A DNA stretch of 63,744 bases, counting the filler, from Atractiella rhizophila (Eukaryota), in the NCBI GenBank assembly GCA_021432655.1. It is 9 parts of 9 records of this genome, joined end to end, with 100 filler letters (N's around TTAATTAATTAA, not from the genome) between each part and the next. Parts side by side here need not be neighbours in the genome. Positions count along the whole stretch, not along the records: positions 42,297 to 50,516 come from MU272162.1; 8 more parts are not named here. One strand, written 5' to 3'. Positions 2,597-61,965 of this stretch are shown one piece after another; the first letter of the stretch is position 1; every line of letters begins with the position of its first letter. The notes beneath the pieces were generated by a model that ran no database searches, was not told where the DNA came from, and worked only from the letters and a program-made list of their open reading frames with translations. The translations under genes were made by a program, and so were the position numbers.

Positions 2597-3554
2597 NNNN
2601 NNNNNNNNNNNNNNNNNNNNNNNNNNNNNNNNNNNNNNNNNNNNNNNNNNNNNNNNNNNNNNNNNNNNNNNNNNNNNNNNNNNNNNNNNNNNNNNNNNNN
2701 NNNNNNNNNNNNNNNNNNNNNNNNNNNNNNNNNNNNNNNNNNNNNNNNNNNNNNNNNNNNNNNNNNNNNNNNNNNNNNNNNNNNNNNNNNNNNNNNNNNN
2801 NNNNNNNNNNNNNNNNNNNNNNNNNNNNNNNNNNNNNNNNNNNNNNNNNNNNNNNNNNNNNNNNNNNNNNNNNNNNNNNNNNNNNNNNNNNNNNNNNNNN
2901 NNNNNNNNNNNNNNNNNNNNNNNNNNNNNNNNNNNNNNNNNNNNNNNNNNNNNNNNNNNNNNNNNNNNNNNNNNNNNNNNNNNNNNNNNNNNNNNNNNNN
3001 NNNNNNNNNNNNNNNNNNNNNNNNNNNNNNNNNNNNNNNNNNNNNNNNNNNNNNNNNNNNNNNNNNNNNNNNNNNNNNNNNNNNNNNNNNNNNNNNNNNN
3101 NNNNNNNNNNNNNNNNNNNNNNNNNNNNNNNNNNNNNNNNNNNNNNNNNNNNNNNNNNNNNNNNNNNNNNNNNNNNNNNNNNNNNNNNNNNNNNNNNNNN
3201 NNNNNNNNNNNNNNNNNNNNNNNNNNNNNNNNNNNNNNNNNNNNNNNNNNNNNNNNNNNNNNNNNNNNNNNNNNNNNNNNNNNNNNNNNNNNNNNNNNNN
3301 NNNNNNNNNNNNNNNNNNNNNNNNNNNNNNNNNNNNNNNNNNNNNNNNNNNNNNNNNNNNNNNNNNNNNNNNNNNNNNNNNNNNNNNNNNNNNNNNNNNN
3401 NNNNNNNNNNNNNNNNNNNNNNNNNNNNNNNNNNNNNNNNNNNNNNNNNNNNNNNNNNNNNNNNNNNNNNNNNNNNNNNNNNNNNNNNNNNNNNNNNNNN
3501 NNNNNNNNNNNNNNNNNNNNNNNNNNNNNNNNNNNNNNNNNNNNNNNNNNNNNN
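2597..3554. other. Scaffold gap (958 N) inside contig 1
   Basis: Run of N without the TTAATTAATTAA linker. Confidence 0.98.
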
Positions 3555-8402: not shown

Positions 8403-8502
8403 NNNNNNNNNNNNNNNNNNNNNNNNNNNNNNNNNNNNNNNNNNNNTTAATTAATTAANNNNNNNNNNNNNNNNNNNNNNNNNNNNNNNNNNNNNNNNNN
8501 NN
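8403..8502. other. Artificial contig-joining spacer; identical spacers at 16879-16978, 25354-25453, 33822-33921, 42197-42296, 50517-50616, 58831-58930, 61866-61965
   Basis: Exactly 44 N + TTAATTAATTAA (stops in all six frames) + 44 N each time. Confidence 0.99.
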
Positions 8503-16700: not shown

Positions 16701-17036
16701 ATGACTGTCAAGGTCGGAAAAGCCTTTCCTCCCGCTTCGTTCTCGAAGCTACGTACCGTTTCGAGCACCGAACTACGAGTTTCCTTTGTGAACTCATCCG
16801 AATATTATCATGCCACCTTATTAAGATCGCCTTTCGCTTTCTTATCTCTAATCGATCCCCAATCCTATGTACAGATCGNNNNNNNNNNNNNNNNNNNNNN
16901 NNNNNNNNNNNNNNNNNNNNNNTTAATTAATTAANNNNNNNNNNNNNNNNNNNNNNNNNNNNNNNNNNNNNNNNNNNNGGAGTTTACCTGCTGTCGGTAT
17001 GGTTGAAGTGTTGAAGACTTACTTGGAAATTGTAAG

Positions 17037-25353: not shown

Positions 25354-25453
25354 NNNNNNNNNNNNNNNNNNNNNNNNNNNNNNNNNNNNNNNNNNNNTTA
25401 ATTAATTAANNNNNNNNNNNNNNNNNNNNNNNNNNNNNNNNNNNNNNNNNNNN

Positions 25454-33821: not shown

Positions 33822-33934
33822 NNNNNNNNNNNNNNNNNNNNNNNNNNNNNNNNNNNNNNNNNNNNTTAATTAATTAANNNNNNNNNNNNNNNNNNNNNNN
33901 NNNNNNNNNNNNNNNNNNNNNCAGATTGAGTAGC

Positions 33935-35806: not shown

Positions 35807-38800
35807 TCAATTTGAGCGGCCTCTATCAAGATCGACTGCTAACAGGATCTCATGTTTAATCCCAAATGAAGACGCTGGCCTGACAATATGTGCATGATGA
35901 CATTTAATCTGTTGAATGCCAATGAGCACATCCCTCCGACCACGACAATGATAAAAGCTATGTCCTTTGAGCCCTGGCCTTTGACCAAATGGTTCTGGTT
36001 TCGCAGCGTCCGAGGCATCAAGAACACCGTAAACAGAGACAACGGCAAAGATTTCAAAAATAAGGCCAGTGGGAGCTTGCCTGTCCTCCCGGAAGTGTTG
36101 AAAAATAGAAGAAATCTGTCCCCACCTCTCCTGTCCCGTTTCATCGAAAAAGATGGTGCCACTGTTGCCCTTGTGCTTGTTGTAGGTACTGAATTGACGG
36201 GTTTTCCTCTCGAATCGAGAAATATATCGCACTCAGGGTGTAGGAATCGGTCGTAGGCGCTCTTTTTGGAGGCGGAGGATTTGGAAGTGCTCATAAAATT
36301 GTAGGCTCCCGCTGGTCGAGTGACAGCAAGTAAATGCAAAAGAGCAAGGTAGTTAATGCTTCTCTTGTGGCTGACGATAATGCAACGTATTCGGCCTCTG
36401 TTAATGACACTAGAGATTGTTTCTTGCTCTTCCAAATTACCGCTCTTCCAGCGCGTGTAAAGAGCATTCCCGTAATAGACCTTCAATCGTGGCTGGCAGC
36501 GAAATCAGAATCAGAGTATCCAAAAGGTCTTTCATCCTCAGAAATAATTGCGAAGCTCCGAGAAGTGTATAGTGACGCCCACACTCTCAGTGGTCCTCCC
36601 AGAAGTGTTGAAAAATAGAAGAAATCTGTCCCCACCTCTCCTGTCCCGTTTCATCGAAAAAGATGGTGCCACTGTTGCCCTTGTGCTTGTTGTAGGTACT
36701 GAATTGACGGGTTTTCCTCTCGAATCGAGAAATATATCGCACTCAGGGTGTAGGAATCGGTCGTAGGCGCTCTTTTTGGAGGCGGAGGATTTGGAAGTGC
36801 TCATAAAATTGTAGGCTCCCGCCGGTCGAGTGACAGCAAGTAAATGCAAAAGAGCAAGGTAGTTCGTGTCAGCTAAAGGTTTTGCTTCCTTCCCCCATTT
36901 GGTGAATTCGTCTTCAGTCGCAAGAGATGGTAAGTCTTTCGTGAGCTGTAGACCACCTGGACCGCGATCTACCAAGACGTTCATTGGCTGTTCTAGAAGC
37001 GGAAGGACTGAAGCAGCTGAATCTCCAAGCTTATCTTTGTTGTTCTTCATCCAAGCAAGCAACCGTGCCTTTCGACAATATTGACGTAAACTTATGATAT
37101 CGATATTGTCTAAAGCATGTTGAGTGCTTTGAACAGGTTGTTAGAAGCTTGTCTTACCAAGTTTCCCATTATTCAGTGACCTCCCGAAGTTGCCAATAAC
37201 GCGCTCTCCCGGCCACTCTGAAACATACATCAGGGGGCCCCAATATTGGAGAAGTTCAGCTATATGCATAGCAAAGTGGTGGTTAGGCACAGCTTTTGAG
37301 TGTGGGAAAAGAGCTTTGAGGCCTTGGCGAAAAGCTTTGTAGGCTCTAAGATACTGGTCTGCCTCGATAACCGTTACGGAATATGCGCAGGCAATATTGG
37401 CCGCCGTAACGAGATTTGCAAAGTTGTCGAACAGAGCTGTGTTTCTCTCATTTGAAGAATCTTGCAGCCATAAGGTGCCTAATGTTAACGGTAAAAATAT
37501 TGTATAGAGATTAAACCAGGCGTCTGCTTTGAGTCTTCCAGCACTGGCATAGCCGAGATCAGAAGGCAAGCGTTCCACCCAAGAAGGGACTTGGACTTCG
37601 TCCATAGATTCTCGGAGACGCAAAAATTCGGCTCGTTGGAAGATGCAAGAAACCTTGGACTCAGATGCCCGTGGCCTCATTTGTTTCCGGGTTGAATCCC
37701 TCCAGGCAGTAGACTCTTCTTCCGAAGGAGAATAGTTCTCCTCCGCTTCTGCGTCAAAATCTGAGTTGCTATCCAATAAATGTGATGCACTCGGAGGGTT
37801 TGGGGCATTCGCAGGAGCTGCAGATTTCTGGCGTAGATTCCGTCTCCCTGATCCGGCACCTTCTGGAACGTCATAATTAGCATCGACAGTGTGCTGGTAC
37901 CAGGACCTTTCAGCAGCAAGGTCAACAGGTGGACCAGCATTTGCAAGTGCAGCTTCCTCTCGTTCTTCTTCCAGAGCAGCTACTTCAGCTGCCATGTCCA
38001 GGTCATCATCGTCCAATGAAATATCGTCATCCTCATCGGATGGTGGCGGCAGTTCAGTGTTGGCACCAGTATTTGAGCCCTTCTGCTTCGTTATAGCATT
38101 GATGCCCCACTGCCTTCGAAAATGATTCTGCAGCAAGCCCTCACAGACATTATGCATCACTCCAAGGACTGTGTGACGAACAGGGTCTCGATATCGGAGA
38201 CGATTCAAAACTGAGTACCGCACCCCGTACTTTCTAAAAGTTGCTTCTCTTTGCTCGTGAGTTTGTGCTTTGTGCCAGAGATCCGCTCCGACAAGGTGTT
38301 CTTCCTTTGTCCGTGGCTCCCATCTCTCGATGTCCAACCTGTCAATGTCTTTTCGATGTAGCTTGCACAAGGAGCAAAAAAGGCTGGCACTGTGAGAAGC
38401 AAACGCAGCAACTTTCCGCAAAGCAGGGATGTCCCCAATGAGCACAAGAAGCAAAACACAGAACACGAGCCCTAGTGTGGGATTGGTGGGCGTACGAAAT
38501 ACTCTGCCTTCTTGCAAAATTTCTAGATCTTGCACAATAGGTTCAAGGATGTTATTGATCGTAGTAACCGTAGGCTCTTTCCCTCCAGGCGTTAACCCAG
38601 CAACGAATAGGTTCTCAGGACGATATCGAGCATTGATCGGTAAATTTAAGCAAAAGAAGATAAAAATACCGGTTGAACGCTGTTTTTCAGCGATTCTCAT
38701 CGTGAAAGGATTGTACCAGTCGCTGAAAAATGAAAAAACTAGGTTCTCCTTTTTGTAGGTAAACAGCTGCCCATTCGCATCTTTGAGGTTTCGCCATACT

Positions 38801-39900
38801 GGAGCATCATAAATGTCACGATACCTTCCATCCTGTCTGCGCGGTCGAAAGGGTTCTTCCAACATATCCTCAACGTCAGCACGGGATAGGAAATATTGAA
38901 GCCAAGATGTGAAAGATTGTGTTGAGTAGAGAGCTCGAGGGATCTTCAACTGTGCAGTCCCCTTGATGGTTCTCCTGTCTTTCTTGAACAACGGTTCTCC
39001 GCATTCTCTAGCCTTTGGAGTCTCATTGCGATTACAAATATCCTGCGTTGTATTTGTCCATTCGTACTGCTGATGGCATTTAGGACAGCACAATCTGCGC
39101 TCGAACGAAGGTTCAATTCCTAGGCGTTTGTAGATGGATCGAGAATCCGTTGGAAAGTAAGACAGAAACTCGGATGCGTCCTCGCGTAGACGTGAAATAT
39201 TGGCGTCAAGTGTGGCGCGGGCAGGAGAAATATCGTCTAACAGTCGAATTCCACTAAGGAAACCTAATACAAGGGCAAGTGTAATCAATATCTTCCCGAC
39301 TTTGGCCACGATTGAGGCGCTTCTGCGGCTAATGCCCGCACAAAGCGTTAACCAACCCATGAAAGCGAGGTAGATGTGGAAAATGATCCGGGATTCCATT
39401 CCATTTTTCTGATTCTGAAATACTATGATATGTTATTAGCATAACATTGATAAACATATGAAAGTGTACCGTTCTTGGGATCTTGCCCTCCTTTCTGAGG
39501 TGATGGTGAACGACGTCGTGAACCTGCTCTCATTGGAGAGACACTTTTGGCATGTCTGCGAGCAGAAAGAACGTCAACATTTTTCGAAGTCTTCCAATCC
39601 TTTTGACCAGGAACATGACTTTCGAACAATAGTGTATCTAAGAGCCAATTGTTTAGATCGGGAGTCTACGAATGTACTGCCCGTACCTAGATCTTCTCCA
39701 TCTCGATTATTGCGTCCACGATGATCTATTTCCTTTCGCTTACGCTTCTCATCTCGGCGTCGATGCTCATATTCTGTTTTTCGCATTTGAGGGAGGCCAC
39801 GATGAGGGTCTGATGGATCGACGCAGTCAGAGCAGACGCAAACTGTCCTTCCTTCGGGGGCTTGATCGTGTAAGATATAACCTCCTGCTGTTGTTGCCAT
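35807..39900 (-). mobile_element. CMC/EnSpm (CACTA)-like DNA transposon, Transposase_21/tnp2-type gene, disrupted near its 3' end
   Basis: N-terminal CVCSDC...H; CCPKC finger; FFSDWYNPF, CLNLP...RYRPENL, GDIPALRK..FASHSA..FCSLC, VMHN, GRLKADAW, PNHHFAMH, WGP..SEWPGER; C-terminal FSTYNKHKGNS...GQISSIFQH. Introns after 39687, ~39468 and ~37158. Confidence 0.88.
36083..36864. repeat. 272-bp direct repeat (36083-36354 and 36593-36864) flanking a 238-bp unrelated insert
   Basis: Copies offset by 510 bp; only two differences seen (36091/36601 and 36313/36823). Confidence 0.95.
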
Positions 39901-42296
39901 GATGGAGCGAGGCTCTTAATTTGAGGTAGGGGCCGCTCTTGATCTGATCTTTTTGATGTCGATCAGACGGGTCCGATGTTGCAATCGTTCCACCTTTCCA
40001 GCCTGTCTTGCCCATTCAGGCTTCAGTGTTGTAGCCCACAAAACACTCCCCTGGGCTGTTGATAGACGTGTAAGACCGTTCCCTGTACAGGGGTGGGGAG
40101 TTGCCCAACGGTTTGAAGGTATTGCAGGTATGGGAGAGCTCGAGGAGTGGAGAGGGTGAATATCAGATTTGTTGAAAGAAAACTGCCCAGGATGTCGTGG
40201 GCTCGGTATCTGTGTGATAAGAGCCGTTCAAGGATTCGAAGGTACGTCATTGAAGAGACAGTCACATTTCATCGAGATGCTGATGTTTGCTAGATACTGG
40301 GACATGAGTAGCTGATTCTGGGTATTTCACGTCCTAGCAAGAACGACACGGCGGTCACGGTTAAAATCGAAGGATGGTGGGTAGTTCAAGTTGAAGTGGA
40401 TGCGAGGGTACTCTAGAAAAGGAGAAGCTACGATGGATGGATGGGGCGGGCAAGGGGGGTGAAGGAAGTGACGAAATTGGGGGGGATAAAAATTGTGGAT
40501 TGGTAGAAGAACGTGTTTGCGTTAAGAACGAGAGACAATGCTGCAAGCAAGTCTGCATCATTTCCTGCTTCCACTATGACGATGCCCCTCACCTCCATTC
40601 AATGGATGAGGAAAATAGCTGATGAGAAGTGGCACACTTGCTCCTCCACTAAAGGTCCTTCCCTAGCACATCGGCAACAGGCCGTAAAAGCACATTGACA
40701 AGAGCCACTAGCTAACGGGAATGAACTGGATGAAAGAGAGGTGAATTTCATCCGCTATGTTGCCGCGTGCTCCTCCAAATCAAGACTTCTAGCATAAGAA
40801 CGCTCTTCCTCTCGACACAGCCGAGGACAATTTCCTACTTCCCTCGAGTCTCCGTCTTTCCTCATGAACCTGATGCCGAAGAACTACAAAGCACAGGGTA
40901 AATTGCGCGGACAAGTCTCGAAAGTACTCGCATGACCTATCTGTATTCGATTTGAGGAAGAGGATTCAGAGATTAATGAGCGCAATGCAACGGAGATGAG
41001 GAGCGAAAGGGTCGCTGGAGGGTGCGGTGAGAACCGGAGGTTGGTCAGTTGATGTCCTCGTTCCGTCCCAGCATCCTGTCTGTGCCTCCCTTTCGTTATC
41101 CAACCCGCAACCCGTCTGCCGCACGCTGTGGCCGATCCATAACGAGAGTGGTAAGGGAACTGGAAGAGTAAGAGGACGAAAGTCATGTGATGGACTCCGA
41201 TTAGAAACGGTCGCAGCATCACGGTGCGTGGTTGAGGGGGACAAGTCATACAGCCCTCCTTTGCTGCTGACCACCTTCCGATGCTTCCTCCATCTCTTTC
41301 GCCATCCGACCTCCTTCGTACACTCCACCGACGAATTCCGGTCCTGTGGATGCGAAAGAAGGCGAAAGCGGTTGGTGGGAAGCGAAACAAAGTATGAGGA
41401 CATGGCGGAGAGCTAGAAACACAGTGAGAAGGGGGGGGGGCGAAGGGCTAGCGGCGTCCTTACGACGTCCAGCTTCGTTCCCACAAGCTCGTCCTCGCAA
41501 CGCGATGTCGCACCACGCAAGCTCCGCGGTCCGTAGTTGGAGGCTTCTGACGGCGGAGGGTCGATGGGCGGCAAGGTGCAGGGAAGTCGGAAGGTGAGGC
41601 GGGGACCGGGTTGGGATAGCGAAATGAGGCGGCGGAAGGCGACAGGGAGTGAGCGGCTTGTAAGGCTTCTCCGACATCCTAGCTCCTCTATGTCGTTGTC
41701 TTTCGCGTTCTGCTCTTCTGTGGTGCTAGAGGATGCCATGTCTGGAGTGTAGAGTGAGGAGACGGCGAGAAGGAGGGAACGAGCGTGGAGAATCACACTA
41801 TGTCAGGCCGTGTACTTAGTTCTGGGAGGTTAGTCTAACTTTCCCCCCCGCTTCCTGAAAGGTAATGTCACTGATGAGATTAAATGTCGCTTAGATCCCT
41901 CAGTTCGAACAGAGGGAGATATGCTGCAGCCTACTTTGCCTTCTCTGATTAGCCCGGTATCACCAAAACGAGCATCTAAACGTGGCGAGTTTCTCATCAT
42001 TGTTTGATGGCCTTCTAAGTATCCTTTTTCCGTCTAGCTCTGTCAGTAAACAGCATTTCTAGTACCACTTCTCGACGATCTCTCCGAATAAAAATCCTAA
42101 AGGAGCGTGAAGAAGACGTTGGTGTTTCAATGGACATGGAAGATGTTTTAGGTTCACAGTCATGGTCTCTCTTTCTATGGTTGTAAATTAACCATANNNN
42201 NNNNNNNNNNNNNNNNNNNNNNNNNNNNNNNNNNNNNNNNTTAATTAATTAANNNNNNNNNNNNNNNNNNNNNNNNNNNNNNNNNNNNNNNNNNNN

Positions 42297-42825
42297 TCCG
42301 AATCTTCAGACTCACCATACTCATTGACGATGCGTCCTATGACCGTCGTATCGCCCTCATCATTTTCGGCTACGATCCAGCTCAAGAGGCCCTTGCTTTC
42401 CAGCACAGACGTGTCCCTTGGATCCTTGTAATACAGCATAAAGTCTCTACTCTCCGAACCAAGCTCCGGCGCAGAAAGCAGGTCCGGCCTTCACCTCCAT
42501 TACCTCTGCCTTGACATAAGTAGGAACAAAGGATGCTCACCTGGACGAGAAAAGACTAATGACGCAGTTCTTCAGCTTCGTCTTTCCGAACCTCTCTCTC
42601 CCCCTCTCCCTCCCACCTCCATTCTCCTTCTCCCTTCGCGGCTTCCTCCTCTTGATAACGTCAACCTTCAGCGTCCCTTCCGGTCTGCAGCACAGGTTGA
42701 AGCTCGGGGTATACTCAGGTCCAGGGGCCGTTTTGGAGCTCGAATAAAACAGTTTGACTGTACATCCTCAACTCAAAATACAACGATTGGAAGTAGAAAG
42801 CACCAACCACCCATGAGTCTGACAT
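42297..42825 (-). CDS. Ams2/Spt21 N-terminal-domain protein, 3'-truncated
   Basis: Spliced translation VKLFYS...FNLCCR...FGKTKLKNCVISLFSSRPDLL...RDFMLYYKDP...ESKGLLSWIV...TVIGRIV follows the Ams2/Spt21 N-terminal pattern (KVLY, LKxC...PEL, DYxVY.xD, GxLSW, VxGR). Confidence 0.55.
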
Positions 42826-43064
42826 CGTTTGGCTTCGCGGTCGAAGGAAGGGTCGACGTCTGGACATCCTCCATCGTGCGTTCCCGCGTATCAATATCAA
42901 CGCGGAACTGAACAGGAGAGAAGAGCAAAAATCAGCGCCTGTAAAGCGCGTCACAGCTGCTCTCGAACACTTTAACAGGGAGAGGAAAGCGACTGAACGT
43001 CGTCGTGGTTCGGGGTGACACCCAAAACAGTCCCTTATTGCATCCTCACGTGACCACAATCACA

Positions 43065-43073
43065 TATATAAGG
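43065..43073 (+). promoter_or_regulatory. TATA box upstream of the H/ACA snoRNA
   Basis: TATATAAGG about 45-50 nt before the first stem of the RNA. Confidence 0.6.
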
Positions 43074-43116
43074 TTCGGAACGCACTTTTTGATTTTTTTC
43101 ATGAACAACGAAAGAA

Positions 43117-43372
43117 GCGGCGCATAAAGTGAGTGTTTCTCCATTCTCCTTGCAAGTCAAAGCAGTGTTCTGACGATGGTGATGTATGGTTCAGGTTCGG
43201 GTCTTTCATCTATCGAGTTGGAAAGAATCCGCGTTCCAGCGCCGCAGATTGAACGTCTGTTCGCTCACGGTGTGCTCGAGAAGTCGAAGGGAAATCGCCT
43301 GGTCTTTCTTTTGTAGGAGGCATGTGGTGGTATGAACTTTGACGGAGCGCGGTGTGTGATTGGACTACATTT
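43117..43372 (+). ncRNA. SNR37: Box H/ACA snoRNA, probable snR37/ACA10-type guide for LSU Psi2944, interrupted by a 66-nt intron (43129-43194)
   Basis: After splicing: lower stem GCGGCGC(43117-23)/GCGCCGC(43239-45), pocket AUAAA|GUU and CGUUCCA, upper stem CGGGUCUUUC/GAAAGAAUCCG, H-like box AGAUUGA at 43246 (14 nt from the pocket top), long second hairpin 43255-43365, ACA at 43367-69 followed by a U tract. Confidence 0.72.
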
Positions 43373-43933
43373 TTATTTGTGATATGGTAATGTGATTATG
43401 AAATTTTTGTTTCAGAAGGGGTTTGGATGTGGTGCGAGGTAGTGGGTTGGTCACAATTGCGCCAAATTTGCATAGACAGAGAGAGAAAGCAGCCGAACTA
43501 ATCGCTCTGCTTACCCACAAAAGAGTCAAGACGACTAGGAGCTCTGCGCCTTTATGTCTTGATGTCTCTGGGTCCAGCTCAAGCTGTCTCCTAAAACGGG
43601 ACGAAGGGAAGACAACCGCTTCAGCATGTCTTCGCGACCATGCCATCAACCCCAGTCCATCATGTATACAGGGACCAGGCAGGTAAATGTACGGTAACGC
43701 ATGTGAGTAGCGGCACGACGACAACCTCAGACATCAGATTGCTCAAACCGTCGAGGGAAAGAGAAGCGAGAGAGCCATTCTGTCGTGATGAACGAGGGAA
43801 TGACCTCACCCGTTCATAACAATCTACAGTGTGCACAACAATGAAGCAAGCAGAACTCTAAGATGGCCCTCTTCCGACCTCGACCAAGCAAAGAAACGCA
43901 CGCTCAGTCCCATATGTTTCACATACATGAATT

Positions 43934-44435
43934 TCACTCATCCGCATCCTTCACCTCCTCCGCCTTCGGAATCGCCCTCAAGCTCTCTCCTCTCATCTTT
44001 CCCGCAAAGTCCCACCTCCTCTATCCAACCAAACCGTCCCATCCACAACACACATCAATACCAATTCCCTTTCCACCTCATGGAGAGGGTTAGGGAGAGG
44101 AGAAACGCACCTCGGTGCTCTTCAACAGTCCTAAGCTAAACAGAGGCAGGGCGACGATCCAAAAGACGCTGTGGAAGGTGGTCCGGGGTGTGAAGCGGAA
44201 GGTCTTGTATGAGTTGTCTCGTGCGCGCACCCAGGCGTCTATTGCTGGGTCGAACTAATAAACGTCATGCCGCAACCGTACCAAGGAGATTGGAAAGTCC
44301 TTCTGTCAGTACAGGCATGTTGGCTGGGGAAGGAGGGACTGACTTTGACGGAGTCTGGTTGGTCGGTTAGTTAGTGGGCTCGTTTAGAATGAGAGGGTAG
44401 AGAGACGTACGGTACTCGTGTGGTCCTCCTGCCAT
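43934..44435 (-). CDS. NDUFB4: Complex I accessory subunit NDUFB4 (B15/NB5M), 88 aa; exons 44435-44411, 44354-44344, 44254-44111, 44020-43934
   Basis: MAGGPHEYHSVKFDPAIDAWVRARDNSYKTFRFTPRTTFHSVFWIVALPLFSLGLLKSTERRWDFAGKMRGESL...; DPA..W, FRFTPRT, one TM helix and WD..GK are family hallmarks. Not in the ORF track. Confidence 0.88.
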
Positions 44436-44589
44436 GTTCACTTTGGCAGAGTCAAACAATATCAATCCTCTAATCGAAATCGTCGTTTTGTCACCTTGGA
44501 GCTCCGTGCGGACGGGTAGTCTTCTATGCTTTCTATAGTTTCTTCCTTCCCGCTTAAAACTCACCCACCAGCAAAACACTGAGCACAAC

Positions 44590-45870
44590 ATGTCTGCACC
44601 TCCACCGCACACGTCCGCATCGACCTCCAGCGGTAAAAAGAAGGCCTTGCCTCCACCTGCGACCCCGGAAGAGACCTACAAAGCGCTCCAATCACGAATA
44701 GCCGCGTGAGTTTTCCCAGTCCAACGCAACTAAACAACCAAATATCGAAAGACGAAGAGAATTGTCCCGCAGAACTTGCTAGCATGCCTGCTGAGATGTT
44801 GATGTTGTGTAGACGGAGATATTCATGTTGACTTGAGATGTTGAGGGAGTGAAGGTGGAGATGTTGTTGACTTGGGAGGGTTAGGTAGACTCGAAAGCTC
44901 GAACGCTGCGTTGGAGGAGGAGGTCAGGAGGGACGAAAGCGCTGCGAGGGAGAGGTTGGGTGGCGGTGGGGACGGGGATGGGGAAGTGTTGGGGAAAGGA
45001 GAAGTGGAGAGGAAGTACATCGAACTTGTCAGTCTCTCTTCATGCAGTCACTTCTTCGGGAAAGAGAGGGTTGAAAGATGGTTTTTGTTTGAGACAGTTC
45101 AAGGAGATGAAGAGGAACGAAAGGGAGTGGATGAAAGAGAAGAAGCGGCTCCTAAAAGACAAAGAACTAGGTGTGCCTCCCTCCTCTCTTTCTTTCTAAC
45201 TATGCGCTTACGATTCGGCATCGCATCGATGGACAGTCAAATCCGACCTCACGAAAGCTAATGCGGCGCGGACCAAGCTCGAGAAGCTCTCGAGGGACCT
45301 GACGAAGGAGAACAAGCGCTTGGCGTCCCTTTCCGCCTCTACCTCTGCCTCTGCTTCCACTTCAACTTCCACCGTCGCCGTCGGAGGAGGGGCGAGTGAA
45401 CGTCGACTGTCAACGTTAGAGGCGGAGGTGGAACAACAATACGAGGTCCGTCCTTCCCTGTCCTTCTCCCTTCTCTCTTCCCATTGTGTGATTGTGTGTT
45501 ACGTTGGAGAGTGCAACTGATGATGAATGGTGGATGTGGATAGATGAGAGAGAAGTACTACGAATGCGTGCTCCGCGCTAAAGATTTGGAGGTCGCGTTG
45601 GAGAGGGCGAGAGGGGAGAAGTGGAGGAGGAGGGCGGAGGAGTTGGTGAGTCTTCCTCCGTCCATCTTTCTGTTTGGATGTGACTGATTGTTCGAGCAAT
45701 GTGGGTGCGGTAGGAGAGGGAGAGGGAGAGGACGAAACGGTAGCATTTCTTCGGTCTGGTCGACGTCTGCGTTGGCCAATTCGCAGTTGTGTTCCAAATG
45801 CCAATTTCGAAAAGGGATATATACCGAGCGACTAGTATGGGGGACGGAGCTCGAAGGAGCGCGTAGATAG
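44590..45870 (+). CDS. Taxilin-family coiled-coil protein (short); 3' end uncertain
   Basis: KYIEL|FKEMKRNERE...KANAARTKLEKLSRDLTKENKRL and MREKYYECVLRAKDLEVAL resemble the taxilin KLExLCRELQ and RExHF..K.LE motifs. Confidence 0.7.
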
Positions 45871-46452
45871 GGAGCGCTCTTCTTTGTTGTGTTTATACTT
45901 TGCCTTGCGAGGATGATATCAAGCATCAAGCACATCAGGGATCATGAATCATCAATGGGGGAATGGTGAGATAGTAATACAAGATAAATGTTGCTCGATA
46001 TTCACATTGATTGACATCATTTGCTCCAACTTAACGTACCATCGCCGTTTCCTTCTCTCTGCCACTCCGCTAACCAGTCCTACCAATCCACCCTTCTCCG
46101 TTCGCAAAAGTCTGAATTATCACATTATCATATCATCTTACGCCATTCTTCAGCTCATTCCTCTATCCTCCACGCATATTAAACCCGGCAAAAAGTGATG
46201 ACCAATAGATAGACTCGGGAAAGTTGGGTCTAACTTGGCGTAGATGATGATCGTGGAAAGAATGCCGTGATAGTCTTTAGGAGAGGAGAAGGTAGAGAGA
46301 GTAGGGTAGAGTTAGAAAAGACTACGAATCGCTCCTCTCTGTCGGTTCGCCTTTTGAGCTGTCATCCCGAAATTGACAAGTCAACACCTGACCGACTGAT
46401 CCCAAGCGATAAGGGAGAAGCAAAGATCATGCATTTCGAACGAGAGCTTCTC

Positions 46453-46963
46453 TCATATGCAACGTAGCCCTCCCATTGCCTTCGCGGCCCTTGAAAAAAG
46501 ATTAAGGAAGTTGGAGACGCACCCTTGTGGCCATTCCCGGTTTCCCTCTTCCTCCGACTTCTGCACTTGTCGTCTGAACAGGCTCCTCCCTTGAGGTGTT
46601 TCTGCTTCTACGACGAGTAAAGGCGAATCAAAGGATCGCTGTAACAATGCCTACCGACCCAAACGTACCACAGTCAGCAATTCACATTCAAACTTCAATA
46701 TTCCAAGTCCATAACTTGAAGACTTCGCAACTTGAAATTTTCGTGAAATGACCTGAGGAGAAGATATAAAGACACACCTGCCTCCGTATGGATGCCAACT
46801 CGTCTTCTAAGGCTGATATCTCGCTGGAGGTGGGTTGGGCGGGAAGAGAGCGGAAGAGGAGGCGGGTGTGCTGGAAGAAGTAGGTGCGGAAGTTGTACGA
46901 CGGGAAAGAGAGCGCGGCGCGGAGTGTGCGTCTGTACAATGTTCGTAGGCTGGTAGAAGACAT
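46453..46963 (-). CDS. ISD11: LYR-motif protein Isd11/LYRM4 (cysteine desulfurase partner); exons 46963-46778, 46650-46453
   Basis: LYRRTLRAALSFPSYNFRTYF...FR...LASIRRQ|ALLQRSFDSPLLVVE. Confidence 0.85.
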
Positions 46964-47131
46964 CCTTTCTGGCCTTTCAGACTATTTACCTCACTCTCAA
47001 TATTCTGGATCTTGAATCGCTTCGTTGATTTGCTTTGCCTTGGTTTGGTTTGCTGGTTTGGTGGGAGAACTTAAAGTTGGCACAGTATCCGGCCGCAGGA
47101 AAGATCAAATCCAGCGAGTTTGAAAGGAGAG

Positions 47132-49311
47132 ATGGAGGCGGATAGCGTGCCAAAGAAGAAGGCTACGGTGAGAGAGCTGAAGCAGAAGGACTCGGAGAAA
47201 GAAAAGGCGAAGGAGCGGGAGAAGGAGAAGTTCATTTGGAGACAGGTCCTCGCGAACCCTCACAGTGCTAAAGGACAGAGTTGGTGAGTTTGTCGTCTTT
47301 CTTTTAGTATCAGGGAGGGGAGGGAGTGTTGTTTTTGCTGCTCAGAAGGAAGATTCTGTGTGCTCTATGAAGGACTTCAGCATCTGTTTCGACTGGGAAC
47401 ACTCCATTTGCTCCGTACGCTATTGTACAATCTTGCAACACCAGGAAAAACCTGGCGTATCACAGGAATAGGAATTAAAGAGTACCTTTTGGGAAGCTTC
47501 ACACATTACACTAACTTTGGACATCACTACTCACTAGCGTCCACAGGCCACACCTCCCATCCACTCCCGAAGGCTTAAACCTCTGCAACGAGCTCATTTC
47601 CCTCTTGTCTCCGATAGGAGAACAACGTAGCGCCGAATCGGGGTCGTCGAACTCGAAATCGAAGAAGCGAAAGCGCAAGGAAGCAGCCTCGTCCTCGTCC
47701 GTGAGCACGAAGAAACAGAAGGTAGCGACGGAACCAGTTGTTTCAGGATCAGGAGCGGATGTTCCCATGGAGGTGGACGCGACTGGTGGATCTCAGGACG
47801 CAGTCGTTGTCAGGTCGTATACGTTGAGGTCGGATAAGGTGGTGGAATATCGACCTCGTCAGAACTTGTTCAATGCTTCTAAAACTGCCAGCGGTCAAGA
47901 GGACGCGAATGGGAAGATGGAGCAGGGGGTGGAGATGCTGGAGGAAGTGAAAGGGGAGGCAGCCGTGAACGATGAATTGCTGCAATTCGTCACGATAGGG
48001 ATTAACGACGTCACGAAACAATTGGAGAGGATGATACATTCTCGAAGAGCTGTTGAGGTCGGAGCTTCAGATGATGTCCCAGTTGCCCAAGTAAAGGAGA
48101 CGGAGAAAACGAACCCATCGGAAGATGCGCTCGCTTCCGTCTTTCTATCAAACCTCCAACCAGCCATACCACCTCCGATTTCTTTGCAAGCAGCTCCTCC
48201 AGAACTAGTATCGAAGAGGATCCAGCTAGCGCAACTCTCCAAGCCCATGGGATCAGAAATCAGGATCAAACGGGACACGATAGCCCTCGACCTCGACCTT
48301 CCTTCTTTCCGATACCTCGCCAAACCCAACTCAGAACAAGACGTGGGGAATCAACCATCGTCGTATGCCCTATTCCAGGATATGCCATCCCTCCCCCCGA
48401 TTCCTTCCCTCCCTGATTTTCATACGCAACCTCACCCTCCGATACTCAATGGGAAACCTCATCCTTCGAAGAATTCCGCTCTCGTTACGGATTCGGTCTT
48501 GAAAGAGCTTTATAGACCGATGGTCGAAAGCATTTACAGGGAGGAGAGGGAGAGAAAGATTAATTTGAAGAAGAGGGGAGCGAAAATGCGGAGGGTGAAG
48601 AGGGAGGTTGAGAGGATGGAGATGTTGGTTGCTGCAGGAAGATTTGTGAGCTCGAAACAGAAGATGCAGAAAAAGGAAAGAGGGATGAAAGGGAGTCGCA
48701 AGAAGAAGGAGAAGAAGGAACAGGTGGATAGAGGAGATGCGAGAATCGTCCTGGTTTGTAGGGACGACCTGAACCCGCAGAGCTTGACGGATCATCTCTT
48801 GCAGATGGTAGGAAGTTGGAATGCGTTATGCGAAGAGGAGACAAAGGCAGATGAAGGAGATGAACAAGCGGAGAGGAAATCATCGGAATCCAAGCCTGAT
48901 AAGAAGGAGGAGAAGGTGTTTCTAGTCGCTTTACCACAGGGCAGTGAAGTATCACTTGCGAAAGCTCTCGGTGTGAGACGTGCAGCTGCCATCTCCCTTT
49001 CTTCGACCTTCCCCTCCCTCGAACATATCGTCTCGCTTCTATCTACCAATGGCATCTCGCCCATATCCCTTCCGAACCTCAATCGTCCCAGGTCGTATGA
49101 ACAGACCCACATCAAGCATCTGAAGACGAGCGTGCCGACGGACTTGAAGGAGAGGAAAGAGGTGAAAGCAGAGAAGAAGAAGAAAAGGAAGGAGGAGATA
49201 CGGGCAAAGGAGAGGAAAAGAAAGGATGCGCTGAAGTTTGAGAAGAAGTTGAAGCAGAAGGAGCAGAAGAAAAACAAGACGCAGATGATGAACCGGGCAC
49301 AGTCACAATGA
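47132..49311 (+). CDS. POP3: RNase P/MRP subunit Pop3/Rpp38-like (L7Ae fold) with large insertions; exons 47132-47283, 47547-49311
   Basis: VLANPH...W|PHLP...LISLLSPIG; VTIGINDVTKQLE; IVLVCRDDLNPQSLTDHL; LVALPQGSEVSLAKALGVRRAAAISL; THIKHLKTSVP. Confidence 0.72.
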
Positions 49312-49562
49312 AATTCGCTTTAGCAGACTTCACTGTTGAAGTATTTACAAAACAACTCGTTATCATTGTCATACACCCTTGATCTCAAAATATAACGCGA
49401 TTCGACGCGGCAACATCATGTGATCTACGCAAAACTTGAGTTCGGGACAGATTCAGGTGGGTTGCGTTCCTGGCTGCCACGACGCTAGAACGCGTCAAAA
49501 ACGACGGGATTGGCCTCATCCTGCTCTATTTTAATGTTCTTTAGATAGTCTGTAAGGAGAAG

Positions 49563-50516
49563 ATGGACCCCAACGATCTATCACAGGTTCTACCAAGTTC
49601 CCCATCGAAGAAAGCTCGGCTCGCCATTGATGGAACAGCGACCTGCCAACAAACATTTGAGGACCCGATAACCACAATCGAAGAGCAGAATGACGAAAGT
49701 ACTGTGGAATTTGCAACTGATTTGACGGAGGAGGAAGTGAGAAAGTCAAGGAAGTATCAAGATGAAGCACTTGTTGCTGCAAAGGCTGGGAACGTTATTG
49801 TCAGGATGCCTACGGTGCGTATCACGATTAGTTCGCAACTTGTGCCAAGAAGCTTGTTTTTCATTCTGCTACATAGGCATGAAAGCCTGCTGATCCAGCT
49901 TGTCAAAAGCAGTCTTCTTGAAACTGTCACACTTTTAGCCTTTTGAAAGCCACAGAGCAGGATCAGCTCACTGATTCATTTAGGGATCTGGAAAGACAAT
50001 GGTGGCAACTATGCTGATAAAAGACATGTTGTCCTCACCCCTGAGCCAAGGTGATACCACACCCAAGGTCCGCCTCTTCACCTCCACTTAAATTGTGTTT
50101 CCAAATCCCGCTTGACAGAAAATCATCTTCCTTGTTCATACAACGCTCCTTGTGCACCAGCACCACGCCACACTCTCCGCCTCACTCCCATCCCTCCATT
50201 CCTCCTCATCTCTCAAATCCTACTATGGCATGGGGTACGACGACTGGTCATCCTCAAAATGGGAAGCCGAGTTCGAAGAGCTCGCTGTGGCGATCATGAC
50301 GGCCCAAATCTTTCTGAACCAGCTCCGAGCTGGGACGTGGAAAATGAACCGGTGCCAGCTCATTGTCTTTGATGAGTGCCATAATGCCACGAGAAATCAT
50401 CCCTACGTTGCGATCATGAAGGAAGTTTATCATCAGATGCCTGCAGAGGAGAGACCAAAGATTTTAGGCCTCACTGCAAGCCCGATTCAGGATCCACAGG
50501 CTGATAAGGCGAAGAA
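49563..50516 (+). CDS. Dicer-like DExD/H helicase N-terminus, 3'-truncated
   Basis: RKYQ...NVIVRMPT|GSGKT; IFLV...LVHQ; IMTAQIFLN; LIVFDECHNATRNHPYVAIM; RPKILGLTASP. Confidence 0.88.
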
Positions 50517-50616
50517 NNNNNNNNNNNNNNNNNNNNNNNNNNNNNNNNNNNNNNNNNNNNTTAATTAATTAANNNNNNNNNNNNNNNNNNNNNNNNNNNN
50601 NNNNNNNNNNNNNNNN

Positions 50617-58548: not shown

Positions 58549-60360
58549 TATCAGTTAGGGAAGAGCGAGACACCGTACAAACAGTATAAGGAGCAAGAAA
58601 CTCTATGTCAATATGTTCCCCATCGATTGCTTCCAGCTACGTTAACACTAAGTTGACCTGTTTGGTCTTGTGATAGAACGAACGCTAACCTCTCTCCTTA
58701 TAAATATTTCTGTTCTCTTTTTGAGGTCCTTATCCGAAGCAAACTGCCTTGGTGTCAAGTTTCGAAATCTCGTGTAAATATTGGAGGCTACGTGCTTAGC
58801 ATAGAGACTGTTTCTGTATATGTACTTTCGNNNNNNNNNNNNNNNNNNNNNNNNNNNNNNNNNNNNNNNNNNNNTTAATTAATTAANNNNNNNNNNNNNN
58901 NNNNNNNNNNNNNNNNNNNNNNNNNNNNNNGGGGAGATGGCTGATTGCGGTTGTGCTGCTGACTTTCCTGCAGCATTTTCAAGTCGCGATGAGATTGTGG
59001 AATTGGAGAGACACACCTTCGGACACAATCCAAGCTTGCGGCCAACTTGCGCAGTTTCAGCTGCATGGGGACTCGAAATATGGATCAGAGGACGGTCGCT
59101 CAGCGAGTTTGTGTGAGATTCGAAATCGGCTTCGACTGTTTGCCTCTATTCCTGGTCCCCACAGGATTCAATTTCGCGCCACAACTTCCTAAAGTCACTT
59201 ACCCAGCACCTGGGTGCTCGTTTTGGACTCACGTTGGGCTCACTTCGGTGAGTTTTCAAATTTTGGATTTCCTGGACTCGAAACTCACTTTGCCGTGTAG
59301 GACTGTCTGCGAATGAATCTGGAAAGGACTACTTATGAGGTAATGAATGAACTTTAACGATCAACGTTGAACATGGCACTTTGAATCCCAGATGCAATTT
59401 CGAACTCATTTATATTGCAATGGAATGTAATGTCAGACAGATCCACACCATTAGAGCGCCAACCAGAACCAGTTGTGTGAACATCGAACTGTTTCGCCAG
59501 ACGTTCACGGGCTGAGATTGATCGGATCATTGGGCTCTGCAACCTCGATACTGTACCCAATGAGCTCCAGCATCTTAGAAGGTAGGTCCTTCTCACCCGA
59601 CACTTCTTTGCCTTTCGCAAAGCGGCTGCCCGCTGAATACGTGACCCACGACGAAGTGCAGTGCTGAAACCATGCATAAGCTCTAAGAATAGCCACAATG
59701 CATTCTAGCCTCTTCGAACCTCTGTCTTCATTTCAAAGAACGCAGGAAAGACGCGCTCTCGGACCTGCAACTTTGCCACTGGCTGAAATCTGGAAGCCTC
59801 AACTGTAAACTATTTTTATACAGCCTGTCGCTTTCTTCCACAGTTGCCATGAGCTCCCCCATGAAATAATTGAAGGAAGTGGTCAGCCTCTTGTTTCCTT
59901 CTCGCCTTTTGTCTGAAGAAACTTTTGGTTCCATGCGGCATCTCGGCGTCTGAAAAATCCGAATTATCCCAAAATAGCGGGTGTTCCCCTGTCGCACCAT
60001 GTCAATTCCTGCTCTTCGTGCCTTTGGAGCTTCTAAACCTGAGAAAAATGTGGAATACCTCAGTTTATGCATGGAGTATGCAGGAAGTATGCATGAGGAA
60101 AGAGTGGATACAAAAAAATGATATGCTTCCTCCCCTCTTCCGTTAGGCGTCGACGGGTTCCAAGAAAAGGTTCCGCGGACTTCTTACGTCTGGAAAGCAC
60201 CGAAGCCAATAAAACCATTGGGTCAGTGTCCGTGAATGATTCCCCCTTAACAACCATCCCAACCTCCTCAGCTCTCCCTTTGACCTGACCAAAGCAAGAG
60301 CGACCTTTTCTACACTCTTTTGTAACTCACAACAAAAAATTACAACGAAATTTTTTCAAG

Positions 60361-61535: not shown

Positions 61536-61965
61536 ACGCTCCCATCAAACGTCAAAGGATGGGATGGTGATACCTGTGCCGGTATACCTGCCTTTCAATC
61601 GGACTTGGAAATCTTTGCTTCATTCTTTTTCTGTCCTTCCTCGGTTCGATTCCCCTGTCCAAAAAATTCACCCTTAAAACACAAGTGACCCTGGCTTCGG
61701 TTTGACTTCTGCCCCTCCTCATCTCATTGATGAGATGGGATGATCCACGACCGCTTTTTTTGCTTTCTCGGTCGTTGAATTGCTTCATTGGTTTTTTTGG
61801 TCGGTCGTTCCCACTGTCGATACTCATTGTCAATTATATGTCAATGCTTAGCTTCAGCTATCGACNNNNNNNNNNNNNNNNNNNNNNNNNNNNNNNNNNN
61901 NNNNNNNNNTTAATTAATTAANNNNNNNNNNNNNNNNNNNNNNNNNNNNNNNNNNNNNNNNNNNN

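Follow-up and report, generated by a model that had tools for sequence, protein, structure and literature searches.

We report a locus in Atractiella rhizophila that has the anatomy of a box H/ACA guide RNA gene with a spliceosomal intron inside its guide pocket, and that is expressed as a short RNA. One contig from a soil metatranscriptome (run X1) is the predicted exon-exon junction, 43128|43195. The best explanation of the data, which we regard as quite likely to hold as a whole, is a TATA-driven H/ACA gene that is transcribed by Pol II. Its intron is removed in vivo to leave a product of ~196 nt (~43111-43128 joined to 43195-43372), which enters an H/ACA snoRNP and leads to pseudouridylation of a site in the LSU rRNA.

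Under this explanation, Pol II would transcribe an independent guide gene from the TATA box, and the spliceosome would take the 66-nt intron out of the 5′ hairpin. The spliced RNA would then assemble into an H/ACA snoRNP whose 5′ pocket should direct Cbf5 to isomerise the U in the LSU sequence GGAACG-U-G-AGCU. This U corresponds to yeast 25S Psi2944, to N. crassa 26S Psi2902 and to the target of human ACA10. A working pocket would be expected in the spliced form only.

Anatomy and fold of the locus

The window, i.e., the whole stretch of 63,744 nt that was analysed, consists of pieces of ~8.2-8.4 kb (the last two are shorter). They are separated by spacers of the form N44-TTAATTAATTAA-N44, which occupy positions 8403-8502, 16879-16978, 25354-25453, 33822-33921, 42197-42296, 50517-50616, 58831-58930 and 61866-61965. 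A run of 958 N's occurs separately at 2597-3554. Given that the window is made of joined pieces and is not one molecule, genes on different pieces are not neighbours.

The locus occupies 43065-43372 within the 8220-nt piece at 42297-50516, and all of its features are on the plus strand. An earlier reading of this DNA that was made without database searches (hereafter, the sequence-only reading) had proposed a TATA box, a canonical intron and the absence of any real ORF, and each of these claims holds. By sequence inspection, the TATA box (TATATAA) is at 43065-43071, and the 5′ end of the RNA in X1 follows 46 nt downstream of it. Exon 1 comprises about 18 nt (43111-43128), with an approximate 5′ end that is taken from the boundary between adapter and RNA in the X1 contig. 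The 66-nt intron (43129-43194) starts with GTGAGT (43129-43134), contains CTGAC (43170-43174) and ends in CAG (43192-43194). The longest ORFs across the locus are only 40-49 aa, and Pfam scans of the flanking ORFs revealed no gene that overlaps the snoRNA locus.

We also noticed some features in the surroundings. A CACGTG palindrome of the E-box type (43047-43052) precedes the TATA box by 12 nt and may be a promoter element. Directly past ACAUUU, the T-rich segment 43373-43420 has GTAA and TGTGAT motifs, and may carry signals for 3′-end formation. An ORF fragment at 45200-45520 (plus strand) has a weak match to Taxilin, a coiled-coil protein (29.8 bits versus a cut-off of 30.3), and is probably one exon of a gene located ~1.8 kb downstream of the snoRNA. 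On a different piece from the snoRNA, a 752-aa ORF (37141-39399, minus strand) matches Transposase_21 of the tnp2 family (E 1e-07).

The spliced RNA was made in silico by joining 43128 to 43195, and was then folded with ViennaRNA. Its minimum-energy structure is the hairpin-hinge-hairpin-tail arrangement with an ACA-UUU end that the sequence-only reading had described for the RNA after intron removal. In hairpin 1, the strands GCGGCGC (43117-43123) and GCGCCGC (43239-43245) form a lower stem of 7 bp, which is evident from both sequence and fold. The upper stem and its apical loop occupy 43198-43231 in the fold, where 43198-43207 pairs with 43221-43231 in 10 bp with a bulged A43226. The pocket is the internal loop between these stems, with a left strand of 8 nt (AUAAA|GUU) and a right strand of 7 nt (CGUUCCA, 43232-43238). 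The intron is located in the left strand, 5 nt past the lower stem and 3 nt short of the upper stem, with AUAAA (43124-43128) in exon 1 and GUU (43195-43197) in exon 2.

The hinge, AGAUUG(A) at 43246-43252, contains the H box, 14 nt after the upper stem (the pocket top). This H box, AGAUUG (43246-43251), fits ANANNA at five of six positions; it carries G instead of A at position 6, which was already remarked upon in the sequence-only reading, and the next nucleotide is A. Hairpin 2 (111 nt, 43255-43365) is part of the minimum-energy fold and includes three stems that had been named earlier. It is followed by an ACA box (43367-43369) and a UUU tail that extends to 43372, both assigned by sequence inspection. 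We rejected a working second pocket in hairpin 2, as no pocket is present at 14-16 nt from the ACA in the minimum-energy fold. We also rejected the idea of a Cajal-body (CAB box) RNA; no UGAG was seen by eye in either apical loop.

Compared to 300 dinucleotide shuffles, the fold z-scores are modest: the spliced RNA scores -1.89 and the unspliced RNA -0.16, and the 5′ and 3′ hairpins score -2.14 and -2.43, respectively. GTRAGT..CTRAY..YAG triples occur 9 times on both strands of the window, versus 8.5 +/- 3.0 in 50 shuffles, which is chance density. Therefore, the sequence by itself makes the gene plausible but unproven, and it is the public RNA contigs that raise the finding above chance.

Guide pocket and predicted rRNA target

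The pocket is complementary to the LSU sequence 5′-GGAACG-U-G-AGCU-3′. CGUUCC in the right strand can form 6 bp with the rRNA GGAACG immediately 5′ of the target U, and A|GUU in the left strand can form 4 bp, of which one is G.U. The U-G in between is left unpaired, and the distance to the H box is 14 nt. By inspection, the U in rRNA AGCU is the partner of the final A of exon 1, while the GUU of exon 2 makes U-A, U.G and G-C pairs with A-G-C. The pairing was checked by inspection against the N. crassa 26S sequence printed in PMC2780460, used in place of the host LSU; an Rfam cmscan of the whole window detected no rRNA. From this complementarity, we infer that the target is the U in LSU GGAACGUGAGCU, the site of yeast 25S Psi2944.

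The sequence-only reading had assigned the pocket to this site, citing yeast Psi2944, snR37 and ACA10, and the accessible portions of PMC2780460 and PMC8307265 agree. According to the former, ACA15 of N. crassa (Nc ACA15) is the homologue of snR37 and ACA10, and guides 26S Psi2902 from its H-side pocket. Its pairing is given as 5′-GCU / CGUUCCC(N8)AAAGUA-3′ with 26S 3′-CGAG-Psi-GCAAGGG-5′ (PMC2780460, supplement 5). The modifications of yeast 25S listed in the available text of PMC8307265 include Psi2944 (snR37), Am2946 and Cm2948, whose spacing fits U-G-A-G-C. The same text places the Psi2944 site in the PTC, and describes it as conserved in human and as one of few sites that are <85% modified.

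As stated in the sequence-only reading, the left pocket strand spans the splice junction. One correction concerns the base at the junction, which matters little for pairing because the unspliced GGUU also pairs with AGCU via G.U. What splicing alters is the geometry of the pocket, since the left strand goes from 74 nt to 8 nt.

Splicing may conceivably be required for activity, or may couple the spliceosome to modification. A more far-reaching reading would make splicing an obligatory and tunable activation step, with the level of Psi tracking splicing efficiency, or would place the locus in a wider Pucciniomycotina class of intron-split guides. We consider this reading rather unlikely. If splicing were to gate activity in this manner, a left strand of 74 nt instead of 8 nt would deprive the unspliced precursor of a working pocket. 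If the wider class is real, Pucciniomycotina would have hidden intron-bearing guide snoRNA genes that covariance-model annotation has missed. The locus is also a simple test system for the question of whether splicing can gate rRNA modification.

The RNA could instead be a spliced, stable H/ACA-like RNA that does not guide LSU pseudouridylation. Its 10-bp complementarity to the LSU would then have arisen by chance, in an orphan RNA or in one with another target or role. The non-canonical H box fits this idea, and so does a left guide strand that makes only 4 bp, one G.U among them. The pairing was judged from sources other than the species' own LSU sequence or a Psi map. Of 20 H/ACA RNAs that the accessible text of PMC2780460 lists for N. 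crassa, 7 are orphans. As to the H box, the cloned RNA Nc ACA4 is printed with AGAUAGA, which has the same deviation (PMC2780460, supplement 5).

Rfam searches likewise fit an RNA with another role. A match to snR37 or SNORA10 would have been in line with the sequence-only reading, but cmscan on the unspliced DNA found neither of these nor any other family, with 0 matches at the gathering score in the whole window and 0 at E<=10 in 42900-43500. However, Nc ACA15 agrees with the new RNA in the CGUUCC right strand, the unpaired U-G, the spacing of 14-15 nt and the use of a pocket on the H side, and conservation of the site extends to yeast and human according to the available parts of PMC2780460 and PMC8307265. 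Moreover, hairpin 2 varies in the four public runs analysed below, but the guide strands and upper stem have no variants there. We regard a role unrelated to the LSU site as improbable, and continue to favour the LSU guide.

Splicing and conservation in public runs

Six public runs were listed for 42950-43450, all with small shares. Four of the six (X1, X2, X3 and X6) were aligned to 42900-43500 at a likeness of at least 85%; the habitat labels of the runs support no claim. Exon 2 carries contigs in all four. RNA libraries may contain DNA, and both uncovered parts and contig ends are weak evidence that cannot fix the exact ends of an RNA.

The junction is seen in X1. The 171 positions 43195-43365 are covered by a 209-letter contig that differs from the window by 2 letters and 1 gap, and 37 further letters of this contig, a loose end, immediately precede 43195. 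The final 30 letters of this loose end consist of adapter letters and then 18 letters, the final 14 of which are exactly 43115-43128, a 14-mer that is unique in the window. The DNA that precedes 43195 in the window, namely the end of the intron, is unlike the letters of the contig there. An RNA-library contig thus joins the tail of exon 1 to 43195, as the sequence-only reading had predicted. This junction is shown by one of the four runs, in one contig with 18 exon-1 letters, and the alignment listed no formal joint. Because the adapter adjoins there, the RNA would end ~6 nt upstream of the lower stem and 46 nt downstream of the TATA box. The source of X1 is a near relative, of another strain, with 2 differences just upstream of the stem.

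X6, whose library type is not on record, has four contigs. A 141-letter contig spans 43230-43370 with 0 differences, and a second one (43239-43370) has 3 differences and 1 gap and represents a second gene variant. Contigs of X6 that are identical to the window begin exactly at 43195, and two X6 contigs stop at 43370. A 100-letter contig follows the opposite strand from 43259 down to 43195, continues with 5 unplaced letters, and then has GCGCCGC and the hinge on the plus strand. This contig looks like a cDNA snap-back that was primed on the lower stem. It is consistent with a spliced RNA because the 5 letters equal the spacing of AUAAA, a correspondence in number, as the identity of these letters is not displayed.

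The remaining runs differ in what they cover. X3, another metatranscriptome, begins at 43199 and is uninformative on the junction. No contig in X1, X3 or X6 lies on 43129-43188, although the uncovered segment 43110-43188 is not evidence by itself. X2 (~94% alike, with 14 other letters and 2 gaps in 290) extends over 43189-43478, i.e., to 106 nt beyond the ACA; its type is a guess, and it is probably DNA. Its loose end before 43189 is a diverged version of the 3′ part of the intron, in which CTGAC is intact, and runs on through CAG into exon 2. As X2 retains both CTGAC and CAG, a relative carries the intron in its DNA. Downstream of the ACA, the flank in X2 has 6 differences in 106 nt, a rate about equal to that of hairpin 2.

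A stable RNA of ~200 nt, another expectation of the sequence-only reading, is borne out by the RNA-derived contigs. Those of X1, X3 and X6 are confined to 43195-43370, with an adapter-flanked 5′ end in X1, which fits an RNA of ~196 nt that ends just past the ACA.

Near relatives retain the stems, the ACA and the intron signals. Across the four runs, the 60 nt at 43195-43254 have 0 variant sites; this segment carries guide strands and the H box as well as the upper stem and the lower stem's 3′ strand. In hairpin 2, 6 sites are substituted and 1 C is inserted, in a bulge. Four of the six substitutions swap Watson-Crick and G.U pairs (43271, 43288, 43315 and 43361), the one at 43265 turns a U/U mismatch into G.U, and the one at 43340 breaks a U.G pair. 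All three sets of natural variants that were refolded have the same architecture. Concerning conservation of the intron and covariation in relatives, the former is seen in the intron signals kept by X2, but no double-sided compensatory change occurs among the variants of the four runs. A metagenome locus that was the sole match to a 27-letter pattern with 7 free positions (L001) is GC-rich and unalignable outside of the pattern, and we rejected it as a chance match.

The region exists in more than one version. The piece 42297-50516 also contains a 514-aa ORF (47767-49308, plus strand) that has no Pfam match, but that matches two hypothetical proteins of Atractiella rhizophila with 98% and 96% identity, one on an 8220-nt contig and the other on a 292-kb contig. 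Given these two matches on two contigs, the region exists in two diverged copies, and the piece seems to be the second, diverged copy (an allele or a duplicate) of a region on the large contig. Two diverged copies fit the two RNA variants in X6.

Multiple copies are relevant to the possibility that a genuine H/ACA RNA exists but an intron-less copy, in a paralogue or relative, gave rise to the joined contig. The 66 nt would then remain unspliced here, as an insert in the pocket or as part of an inactive copy. The 96%-alike copy on the 292-kb contig implies more than one gene copy, the junction letters are in one contig of one metatranscriptome, and this contig departs from the window just upstream of the stem. 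An unspliced insert would also be in line with the chance density of splice-signal triples, and the minimum-energy fold of the unspliced RNA still makes the same lower stem. However, 43195 is the exact start of X6 contigs that show 0 differences from the window, the segment 43129-43188 is free of contigs in X1, X3 and X6, and the spacing in the X6 snap-back contig is the 5 letters expected of a spliced RNA. The sole junction-less contig that reaches upstream of 43195, in X2, runs 106 nt past the ACA and is DNA-like. In addition, CTGAC and CAG are preserved in the relative despite changes to the letters in between. We therefore hold an intron-less source to be quite improbable, and retain splicing of the 66-nt intron as the explanation of the junction. 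A gene-free stretch of intergenic DNA that folds by chance would agree with the modest z-scores and with intron signals at chance density, but is hardly credible in view of three RNA-labelled or RNA-like runs from different studies that cover just 43195-43370, one of them with an adapter at a discrete 5′ end.

Relation to known small RNAs

The sequence-only reading recognised no earlier description of an intron inside an H/ACA pocket, and our search leads to the same result. No H/ACA guide gene with an internal intron was found in the full-text literature, a scope that excludes most subscription journals and in which part of the searching was weak on the term 'H/ACA'. The accessible text of PMC5824354, PMC10557570, PMC2656528, PMC2377427, PMC3596301, PMC5033589 and PMC8476143 has no intron inside an H/ACA guide gene. 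We rate the locus as an ordinary guide RNA with an ordinary intron, in a combination and position that are unreported in the literature searched.

An intron-split H/ACA guide would add a new class of RNA, one with no physical link to the spliceosome, to the intron-bearing small RNAs, i.e., U3 and snRNAs. Intron-split guides are invisible to standard snoRNA annotation, as the 0 Rfam matches here illustrate, so apparent guide 'losses' in intron-rich fungi may be artefacts. The intron's origin could lie in a general tendency of Pol II ncRNA genes to gain or retain introns. Intron-dependent expression, as reported for Cryptococcus genes in the available part of PMC3744415, is a second possibility.

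Nc ACA15, snR37 and ACA10 (SNORA10) share with the new RNA the predicted target context GG(G)AACG-Psi-G-AGC and the right strand CGUUCC. As in Nc ACA15, the pocket is in the 5′ (H-box) hairpin, with 14-15 nt from pocket to H box, and the N. crassa gene is also intergenic and independently transcribed, according to the accessible text of PMC2780460. The same text reports no intron in Nc ACA15, whereas the gene here has a spliceosomal intron in the 5′ strand of the pocket. Further differences are the H box (AGAUUG versus AAAGUA) and the left strand (AGUU, with a G.U pair, versus GCU). Unlike snR37 and SNORA10, the new RNA has no detectable Rfam match in a scan of the unspliced DNA.

We examined the 5′ part of Nc ACA15 by eye in supplement 2 of PMC2780460. 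Between a possible strand of the lower stem and GCU are ~47 nt that include a perfect UACUAAC and then AG. As a candidate intron, this segment has no convincing 5′ splice site that could be found by eye in the supplement.

Introns of the mRNA type occur in the U1, U2, U5 and U6 genes of Rhodotorula hasegawae (Erythrobasidium hasegawianum), according to work cited in the available text of PMC5855946. This organism belongs, like Atractiella, to Pucciniomycotina, and its snRNA genes, as far as they are described there, resemble the new locus: they are genes for small structured RNAs, with spliceosomal introns in conserved regions. However, these snRNAs are parts of the spliceosome, whereas an H/ACA snoRNA is not a spliceosome component. 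The R. hasegawae introns were reportedly explained by reverse splicing at the catalytic centre. Because an H/ACA snoRNA is no component of the spliceosome, this route is not obviously applicable here, and reverse splicing into spliceosome-bound RNAs is a poor fit as an origin of the intron.

Fungal U3 genes, i.e., SNR17A/B of S. cerevisiae and those of N. crassa, most Pezizomycotina and Basidiomycota, resemble the locus in having their own promoter and a GU..CTRAC..AG intron in the 5′-most stem-loop. In the accessible text of a 2017 survey, U3 and U6 alone among small structured RNAs are known to be frequently interrupted (PMC5832005). U3 introns are present throughout Basidiomycota, and each U3 gene of Rhodotorula graminis has two (Canzler et al. 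2017, PMC5832005). Unlike U3, a box C/D processing RNA, the RNA here is an H/ACA guide, and its intron is in the substrate-binding pocket. The branch A of this intron is 21 nt from the 3′ splice site, and the range given for fungi in the available part of the survey is 6-36 nt (PMC5832005).
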